Below, piece after piece: positions 11,025 through 11,659 of a DNA stretch of 64,000 nt; position 1 is the stretch's first letter, and every line of letters starts with the position of its first letter. The stretch is from Candidatus Pelearchaeum maunauluense. Lineage in GTDB: Archaea > Thermoproteota > Nitrososphaeria_A > Caldarchaeales > Caldarchaeaceae. The translations under genes were made by a program, and so were the position numbers. Location: positions 64,001 to 128,000 of the forward strand of contig JANVYQ010000002.1 of the NCBI GenBank assembly GCA_030059675.1. The letters run 5' to 3'. Below the pieces are notes generated by a model that saw nothing but the letters and a program-made list of their open reading frames with translations, had not been told where the DNA came from and ran no database searches.

Positions 11025-11659
11025 ATGAGGAAATACGAGCTCCCACAGCTACCGTATTCCTACGAGGCGCTGGAGCCTTATATATCCCGCGAAATAATGA
11101 CGTTGCACCATAGCAAGCATCATCGGGCCTACGTAGACGGCGCTAATGCTGCCTTAGAGCGCCTAGAAAAGCAGCGCAGAGGAGAAAGTCAGGAGAACGT
11201 AAGAGCGATTTTGAGGGACCTTAGCTTTAATCTATCAGGCCATAAGCTGCATAGTGTATTTTGGTGTAACATGGCGCCGCAGGGCAAAGGAGGAAAACCA
11301 GGAGGAGCAATAGCAGACCAAATAAACAAAGACTTCGGCAGCTTCGAAGCATTCAAGAAACAATTCAGCGACGCAGCAAAAAACGTAGAAGCAGTAGGAT
11401 GGGCAATACTAACATACGACCAAGAATCAGACACCCTACTAATCTACCAAGTAGAAAAACAAAACTTCATGCACCCACCACACCTACCACTACTACTAAC
11501 ACTAGACGTATGGGAGCATACGAGGCTGGGCGTATTGCCCCCTCGGCTCAGGCCTACTACCTCCAGTACAAGAACGACAGAGCAAGCTACGTGGAGCAGT
11601 GGTGGAACGTGGTTAACTGGGACGATGTCGACAAACGATTCTCTAAGGCCAAAGTTTAA
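11025..11659 (+). CDS. sod: Fe/Mn superoxide dismutase; exons 11025-11519 and 11552-11659, 200 aa after splicing
   Basis: [31 protein letters not shown]; frame restored by removing 32 nt. Confidence 0.95.
11520..11551 (+). other. Bulge-helix-bulge mRNA intron (32 nt) in sod
   Basis: Central helix GAGC(11514-17)/GCTC(11546-49); 3-nt bulges ATA and AGG; inner stems CGAGG/CCTCG and GGGC/GCCC; canonical cuts after the 2nd bulge nt give CAT|GCC. Confidence 0.9.

Follow-up and report, generated by a model that had tools for sequence, protein, structure and literature searches.

How could an archaeon make a superoxide dismutase (SOD) from a gene whose reading frame is broken directly behind a metal-ligand motif? 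This question is raised by a 64,000-nucleotide (nt) stretch of Candidatus Pelearchaeum maunauluense (contig JANVYQ010000002.1, positions 64,001 to 128,000; C9:64001-128000 of the genome that carries it, G000), hereafter the window, to which all coordinates refer unless another contig is named. The gene in question, sod, encodes an Fe/Mn SOD, begins with the ATG at 11025 on the forward strand and is intact up to GAC GTA TGG GAG CAT (DVWEH), which ends at 11519. Past this point the frame of exon 1 crosses 11520-11551 out of register, and the normal continuation restarts at 11552 in a different frame. The initial annotation of this stretch had described a frame-shifting insert of 32 nt right after the His codon, and our analysis reproduced it base for base. 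We consider it very probable that 11520-11551 constitutes a bulge-helix-bulge (BHB) intron in the coding sequence of the organism's only Fe/Mn SOD gene, and that it is spliced by EndA and RtcB. This reading is based on the motif and the register in which it lies, on the frame that excision restores, on genes for the enzymes in the same genome, on a cutting rule that also fits cbf5 and tRNA genes and on the recurrence of the insert; cleavage and ligation of the sod mRNA are what we infer from them.

Removing 11520-11551 by coordinates yields a 200-amino-acid (aa) SOD in which DVWEH is joined to AYY (GAG CAT|GCC TAC), which are the EHAYY junction and the product length that had been predicted. 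When the excision is moved by one base to either side, the junction reads HT.. or EQ.. instead of EHAYY, and the His or the Ala is lost. The insert splits the Pfam profile Sod_Fe_C exactly, at positions 73|74, and the best match of exon 1 in the Protein Data Bank (1p7g, E 9.8e-73) stops aligning at the last residues, DVWEH. Over the two exons both Pfam domains of Fe/Mn SOD are complete, and the D-x-W-E-H metal-ligand motif, whose Asp and His we take to be the ligands, is present and followed by AYY. The spliced protein is predicted to contain the peptide DVWEHAYYLQYK, which would be absent from the read-through product. A TATA-box-like element, TTTATATA, located 24-31 nt 5' of the ATG and a T-run after the stop codon, both recognized by eye, suggest a normally transcribed, leaderless sod mRNA, the spacing being judged by what is generally known of archaeal promoters.

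Together with its flanks the insert forms the canonical archaeal BHB arrangement (Table 1). All 18 base pairs proposed in the initial annotation are Watson-Crick, in the geometry and register described there, and two 3-nt bulges on opposite strands are separated by the 4-bp helix GAGC/GCUC, the arrangement that defines a BHB. The flanking helix inside the intron, h', has 5 bp, and the exon-exon helix, h, is made of GUA/UAC (11508-10 with 11555-57) and GG/CC (11512-13 with 11553-54), an imperfect helix of 2 bp, a 1-nt bulge and 3 bp. The isolated intron folds into the hairpin of h' and inner stem at -14.8 kcal/mol, and at 75 and 85 °C the region's minimum-energy fold is built from the central helix H with bulge 1, plus h' and the inner stem.

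Such folds are rare. A strict scan of the 1.79-Mb genome on both strands, at every position and for intron lengths of 12-150 (4+2+5 Watson-Crick pairs in register), returned 157 sites in 495,652,872 position x length trials (3.2e-7), two of which are copies of the sod structure. A laxer scan, which allowed G-U pairs and looser helices, returned 49,622 sites across the same trials (about 1e-4). The position and length of the sod insert are preset by the protein alignment, independently of the fold. This frequency bears on a first rival explanation, a recent inactivating insertion, in which a dead-end hairpin copy would have made sod a young pseudogene and the conservation of exon 2 would predate the insertion or a lateral transfer: a perfect in-register BHB would arise by random insertion with a probability of only about 3e-7.

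A second rival requires no RNA processing at all. The ribosome would leave CAU (11517-19), skip the hairpin and land at CAG|GCC; a stable hairpin does follow the take-off codon, and CAG, the last three bases of the intron, resembles CAU. However, CAG and CAU resemble each other because the BHB itself has two-fold symmetry, take-off and landing would use different codons, and there is no stop codon behind the take-off site. Bypass in phage T4 gene 60 passes over a short, hairpin-containing stretch of non-coding sequence within an open reading frame (ORF) and requires matched take-off and landing codons and a stop codon. The sod gene shares with gene 60 the hairpin-bearing gap inside an ORF but lacks the matched codons and the stop codon, and no RNA is cut in gene 60. 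Bypass would also leave the 4-bp helix, the two 3-nt bulges and the outer helix, all in the exact register of EndA, unexplained. To our knowledge, though no literature search was aimed at it, translational bypass is not known in archaea, and we regard it here as highly improbable.

The enzymes that splicing would need are encoded in the same genome, whose assembly comprises 21 contigs and is 94% complete. We found two EndA paralogues (tRNA_int_endo, 98.5 and 65.3 bits), each with N and C domains; their genes lie at C16:3378-3926 and C10:9428-10072. The 182-aa paralogue has Tyr, His and Lys at the catalytic places and the 214-aa paralogue lacks the His (by eye). This pair fits a two-subunit enzyme. 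RtcB is encoded as well, on C20 (575.9 bits). Archaeal EndA cuts BHB structures in a structure-specific, context-independent manner. In the mechanism we propose, the sod pre-mRNA would fold as helix-bulge-helix-bulge-helix across the intron and the adjoining ends of both exons, and a hetero-oligomeric EndA built from the two paralogues would cut each 3-nt bulge behind its second base, at 11519|11520 and 11551|11552. RtcB would then join the exons to GAG CAU|GCC UAC, giving a spliced mRNA that encodes the normal 200-aa SOD, and the 32-nt intron would be released, probably as a circle formed by RtcB.

Other introns of this genome serve as internal controls. The rule of cutting after the second bulge base, on which the proposed splice sites had been based, was checked in this genome on the introns of tRNA-Asn(GTT), tRNA-Pro(GGG) and cbf5 and holds for them. 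Both of these tRNA genes show a full BHB in the register given by ARAGORN, with cuts at 37/38, and both tRNA-Tyr genes have the motif within a 2-nt shift of that register; for the other 9 of the 13 intron-bearing tRNA calls inspected, simple scoring gave no clean BHB. In cbf5, the catalytic GGTL-D-PAVSGVLP reappears once a 23-nt intron is removed according to this rule; exon 1 holds DKCLD and exon 2 begins at position 17 of the TruB_N profile. By fold and restored motif, the genome carries the classic cbf5 intron, the one protein-gene BHB intron that has been proven to be spliced elsewhere. We found no other copy or relative of the sod intron elsewhere in G000. Genome-wide, 5,351 sites of the lax scan qualified as ORF-joining, most of them at junctions between neighbouring genes, and 15 of the 157 strict sites passed the ORF filter. 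Three candidates for further mRNA introns, C5:81750 and C12:24587 from the strict scan and C20:90896 from the lax one, were rejected as the ORF listing shows intact ORFs or adjacent genes, and the remaining 12 strict candidates were rejected by eye on their junction peptides.

The cell would also depend on the split gene. A whole-genome Pfam search of G000 revealed no further Sod_Fe_C gene, only a 3' fragment, and neither superoxide reductase nor Cu/Zn SOD was found when looked for in this genome. The split sod is, as far as these profile searches tell, the sole superoxide scavenger found in G000. Moreover, sod is present in 31 of 31 high-quality genomes of the order (41 searched) and in 42 of 43 in the class.

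The same insert recurs outside this assembly. In G001, a congeneric genome of another species and a separate assembly, it sits at the same codon and differs by C11526U in the CU bulge and by G11532A in the loop. A 121-nt contig from sequencing run X1 covers 11454-11574 including the insert and carries U11536C in the loop. A third instance is implied by P0001, a 209-aa JGI protein with an aberrant C-terminus, which is the read-through of a homologous sod insert; it requires changes at 11533 in the loop and 11551, the second base of bulge 2, and at the remaining 30 of 32 positions it fits the G000 intron. Unpaired bases take all of these substitutions, both the three seen at the DNA level (3/3 in G001 and X1) and the two forced by P0001 (2/2). 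P0001 also bears on the expected misannotation of the gene: the call is indeed aberrant, but it reads through to 209 aa and is not flagged as a pseudogene.

Within the window, the 32-mer occurs twice, at 11520 and 17472 (expected, 0 in 100 shuffles), as the initial annotation had noted; the second occurrence proved to be a 3' gene fragment, however, not a second gene. In this fragment the final ~40 nt of exon 1 are followed by an unchanged intron (17472-17503) and by a diverged exon 2 that matches Sod_Fe_C 74-102 and differs from the main exon 2 by 6 synonymous and 5 non-synonymous codon changes; no sod sequence lies upstream of the fragment. Over about 11486-11586 it matches the main gene at 100% identity, which suggests gene conversion between the two copies; beyond this stretch the divergence is strong. 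The fragment may stem from a duplication, from ectopic recombination or from a gene-conversion partner. An assembly or sequencing artefact might be suspected in a 21-contig assembly, but the insert is present twice in the contig, in G001 with two substitutions and in the X1 contig with one, and is implied by P0001. Its presence in independent assemblies bears out the earlier judgement that an artefact is unlikely, and we give this explanation almost no chance.

An allele without the insert appears to exist as well. In run X4, which we guess to be DNA, a 463-nt contig (record 23, on 11415-11670) joins 11519 to 11552 exactly and skips the 32 nt without ambiguity. Relative to the window it has 2 differences over the 105 nt preceding the joint and 17 over the 119 nt that follow. 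Since the run is guessed to be DNA, we read this contig as the intron-less allele of a close relative rather than as spliced RNA. It points to a presence/absence polymorphism of the intron among close relatives.

We surveyed the distribution of the insert with Pfam-based whole-genome searches, which scored the 73|74 split of Sod_Fe_C and are blind to introns in the N-terminal domain. The split was found in the same two genomes, G000 and G001, at each level: in 2 of 39 sod genomes of the order (41 searched; the other 37 are continuous, one with an internal TAA), in 2 of 59 sod-bearing genomes of the class (76 searched) and, judged by each genome's best E-value, in 2 of 246 sod genomes of a phylum sample (401 searched). 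Only six genomes of the phylum sample scored weaker than 1e-24, namely these two and G132, G161, G197 and G410. G132, G161 and G410 were rejected as split genes, being fragments or lying at contig ends. In G197 (C1:785999-786297, L175), a complete genome elsewhere in the phylum, sod is frameshifted near residue 137 without an insert, either a pseudogene or a sequencing error. By these surveys, the insert is confined to one genus among the genomes covered.

Pattern and protein searches added little. A degenerate junction pattern matched at least 120 stretches in genome contigs; among the matches listed, 1 of 120 had sod, uninterrupted, and the pattern is too unspecific to judge other genomes. 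A first junction pattern had 0 matches in a collection of metagenome contigs that is incomplete for JGI contigs, the contig of P0001 not being among its matches. All 14 matches of a second pattern there were false, 13 of them caused by an out-of-frame TGGGAACAC that lies 29-31 nt upstream of the actual WEH and one by non-coding sequence. The exact read-through products of the window were absent from a collection of 15 billion proteins. A protein search with the ORF in the frame of exon 2 had no match, and one with the read-through tail of P0001 returned P0001 itself only.

Comparison of G000 with G001 bears on the frame in which exon 2 has been maintained. Exon 2 in the spliced frame has 9 synonymous and 1 non-synonymous codon differences, while the other frames give 2:9 and 0:11; exon 1 has 56 synonymous and 7 non-synonymous differences. 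This is the pattern of purifying selection on exon 2 in the spliced frame only. Although the tail of P0001 is very different, read in the spliced frame it allows the residue of G000 exon 2 at 27 of 32 positions, the three Trp (3/3) among them.

The gene itself appears to be a mosaic. Differences between G000 and G001 per 50 nt amount to 7, 17, 14, 15, 13, 4, 7, 2, 0, 1, 2, 6 and 5. In G000, the last 225 nt of exon 1 have 61% A, 31% C, 7% G and only 1% T at third codon positions (92% A+C), whereas the first 270 nt are unbiased; in G001 all of exon 1 is biased. By A+C at third positions the 225-nt stretch ranks second among 1,273 long ORFs, and other genes share the direction of the bias, which is probably the high-expression codon bias of the organism. 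The simplest reading is that sod of G000 is a recombinant whose intron-bearing part comes from a G001-like allele. As an observation in its own right, the mosaic at 11290-11580 suggests lateral exchange of the intron-bearing segment.

Several observations weigh against splicing. Our search of sequencing runs gave no RNA run with the sod locus, so that splicing is inferred; without excision, the frame remains open as far as 11663 (212 aa) and could yield a read-through protein. The outer helix h is weak (2 bp, 1-nt bulge, 3 bp); hetero-oligomeric EndA accepts relaxed BHB motifs, according to the accessible portions of PMC2738675 and PMC5829648. At 37 °C the optimum is 2.6 kcal/mol more stable than the full BHB (-21.2 kcal/mol), and the 71-nt region is no more stable than its shuffles (z -0.80; 42 of 200 shuffles fold as well). 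A survey of sod genes for inserts with covarying stems, which had been suggested as a check, found the insert at the same codon in G001, X1 and P0001 but no covariation: all paired positions are invariant, which leaves no compensatory change to be counted, and the substitutions number only 3 to 5. The near-identical allele of X4, read as intron-less, indicates that the insert is dispensable. Finally, the intron lies inside a low-divergence tract of ~200 nt (4 differences over 11379-11578) with 13-26% divergence on both sides, the sequence elsewhere differing by about 21%. The intron is possibly young or recently exchanged, and part of the selection signal on exon 2 may predate its arrival, as would follow if sod of G000 is a recombinant that took its intron-bearing part from a G001-like allele. 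Conservation by itself would leave room for a recent disabling insertion.

It is at this point that the inactivating insertion has to be weighed in full. The low divergence of the tract may mean that little time has elapsed since the arrival of the insert, which is restricted to one genus (the 2 of 59 sod-bearing genomes of the class) and has a close intron-less allele, and the frameshifted sod of G197 suggests that sod decay occurs in the phylum. Yet the insert has been kept in four assemblies with exon 2 frames intact and substitutions in unpaired bases only, and the loss of sod would fall on a cell in which no other superoxide scavenger was found, in an order where sod is near-universal. 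Moreover, EndA and RtcB, which on this reading already splice the cbf5 mRNA, would be expected to cut the sod RNA whatever its history. Together with the improbability of a chance BHB, these points leave the inactivating insertion improbable in our view, and we retain the spliced intron as the preferred reading.

Seen as a spliced element, the intron looks like a recent, genus-restricted gain. It is conceivable, although we would sooner doubt than assert it, that the sod intron is young and still spreading between congeneric species by homologous recombination, together with a co-converted exon tract of ~200-300 nt. This idea draws on the near-identical tract, the G001-like codon mosaic, the coexistence of alleles with and without the intron and the second, promoter-less fragment 6 kb away. 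If true, a still-spreading intron would offer a live natural system for the entry and exit of tRNA-type introns in protein genes. If splicing takes place as proposed, synthesis of the cell's only superoxide scavenger would be tied to EndA and RtcB activity; the initial annotation saw in such a dependence a possible control point under oxidative stress.

The closest known system is cbf5. A BHB intron in its pre-mRNA is known in Crenarchaeota (Watanabe 2002; Yokobori 2009, PMC2738675), and the accessible portion of PMC2738675 reports introns predicted in other archaeal protein genes, none of them confirmed. In the portions at hand, PMC7714728 (2020) gives the cbf5 family as the confirmed protein-coding BHB introns of archaea, plus the 5'-untranslated-region (5'-UTR) case HVO_1309, and PMC12397907 (2025) still cites the cbf5 papers only. 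Our literature search, full text included, found no report of a sod intron, in keeping with the initial claim of novelty; supplementary lists, for example for the Sulfolobus genomes cited in the accessible part of PMC2738675, may hold other predicted protein-gene introns. Like the sod intron, that of cbf5 is a short BHB in coding sequence that breaks the frame within a catalytic motif, occurs in hosts with hetero-oligomeric EndA and shows patchy gain and loss among relatives. Unlike cbf5, sod has a stricter motif (a full hBHBh' with a 5-bp h'), whereas cbf5 of G000 combines a strong outer helix with a relaxed h'; the sod intron also sits in another gene, has a much narrower distribution (one genus) and is known here from sequence alone. 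The proposal is the same mechanism as in cbf5, in a new host gene and evolutionarily young.

In Haloferax volcanii HVO_1309, as described in the available part of PMC7714728, an EndA substrate likewise lies in an mRNA and its removal appears to matter for expression; unlike in sod, that intron is in a 5' UTR, leaves the coding frame uninterrupted and belongs to a euryarchaeon whose enzyme is a homodimer. The BHB introns of archaeal tRNA and rRNA share with the sod intron the motif, the predicted cuts and the enzymes EndA and RtcB, but in sod the host is an mRNA: codons make up the outer helix, and splicing would restore a reading frame instead of yielding a folded RNA. A more distant parallel is HAC1/XBP1, where IRE1 cuts at stem-loops and a tRNA ligase or RtcB joins the ends, so that a short frame-shifting mRNA intron is removed and the active protein depends on splicing. 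The proposed sod case resembles it in the use of a protein endonuclease at stem-loops, a tRNA ligase and translation that depends on splicing; it differs in that IRE1 is an unrelated endonuclease and its splicing is stress-regulated. The accessible portion of PMC13149111 mentions HAC1/XBP1 as unconventional mRNA splicing.

A second BHB intron in coding sequence, in a metabolic stress enzyme and not an RNA-modification enzyme, would mean that mRNA splicing by EndA and RtcB is no one-gene oddity. With an intron limited to one genus and an apparently intron-less sister allele, the origin of such introns, which the cbf5 papers left unsolved, becomes open to comparative study. There is also a practical side: gene callers read through the insert, as in P0001, or would report a frameshift, and an aerobic or oxygen-tolerant trait may be misscored as lost in metabolic reconstructions.

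Table 1. Coordinates of the sod locus, its predicted RNA elements and associated features (window positions unless a contig is given).
Feature	Position	Strand	Remarks
TATA-box-like element TTTATATA	10994..11001	+	by eye; 24-31 nt upstream of ATG
sod exon 1	11025..11519	+	165 codons, ends DVWEH; Sod_Fe_N 1-82/82 (E 1e-31), Sod_Fe_C 2-73/102
Putative 32-nt BHB intron, sod	11520..11551	+	frame, Pfam split, fold, recurrence in other assemblies
sod exon 2	11552..11659	+	35 codons + TAA; Sod_Fe_C 74-102/102
Outer exon-exon helix h, 5' strand GUA(U)GG	11508..11513	+	pairs with 11553-11557; 5 Watson-Crick pairs; U11511 bulged
Central 4-bp helix H, 5' strand GAGC	11514..11517	+	pairs with 11546-11549
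Bulge 1, AUA	11518..11520	+	predicted 5' cut between 11519 and 11520
Intron hairpin	11521..11545	+	h' CGAGG/CCUCG 11521-25/11541-45; CU bulge 11526-27; GGGC/GCCC 11528-31/11537-40; loop GUAUU 11532-36
Central helix H, 3' strand GCUC	11546..11549	+	pairs with 11514-11517
Bulge 2, AGG	11550..11552	+	predicted 3' cut between 11551 and 11552
Promoter-less 3' fragment, second sod allele	17432..17625	+	repeats 11480-11673; 194-nt direct repeat, 89% identity
Putative cbf5 BHB intron, 23 nt	G000:C9:2441-2463 (L038:1797-1819), outside window	-	7-bp exon-exon helix, central CUCU/GGGG, bulges AGA and AAA
Retropepsin-like aspartyl protease ORF	13257-13625	-	between sod copies
PaREP1/HEPN ORF	13721-13987	-	between sod copies
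DUF2283	14936-15148	-	paired with DUF4258/BrnT-like toxin, between sod copies
DUF4258/BrnT-like toxin	15133-15411	-	between sod copies

The region between the two sod copies contains several accessory genes (Table 1), and in G001 nothing else of 11.66-18.6 kb is present. An integrative element was considered as the origin of the sod fragment, but no integrase was found between the copies, and an ORF resembling the immediate downstream neighbour of sod adjoins the intron-less sod of G002 too. Rfam gave no match over 9000-19500, and a tRNA-Thr(GGT) called by ARAGORN in intron mode at 12568-12667 is unconfirmed by it. GC-rich stretches at 12400-13200 and 14200-14400 (54-67% GC against ~40% around them) contain no convincing ORF. 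Repeats of a CC(C/G)TTCACC...CTCCAGG motif were seen by eye at about 12797-13050, where TRF finds no array. Convergent with sod lie two tandem Cys-rich ORFs on the reverse strand (11758-12033 and 12041-12469), in which an HNH-like C-x2-C ... H ... N ... C-x2-C arrangement was recognized by eye; the Pfam HNH match is sub-threshold (E 0.042, 14.4 bits). A stretch 54% identical to the region of these Cys-rich ORFs adjoins the intron-less sod of G002 (L015).

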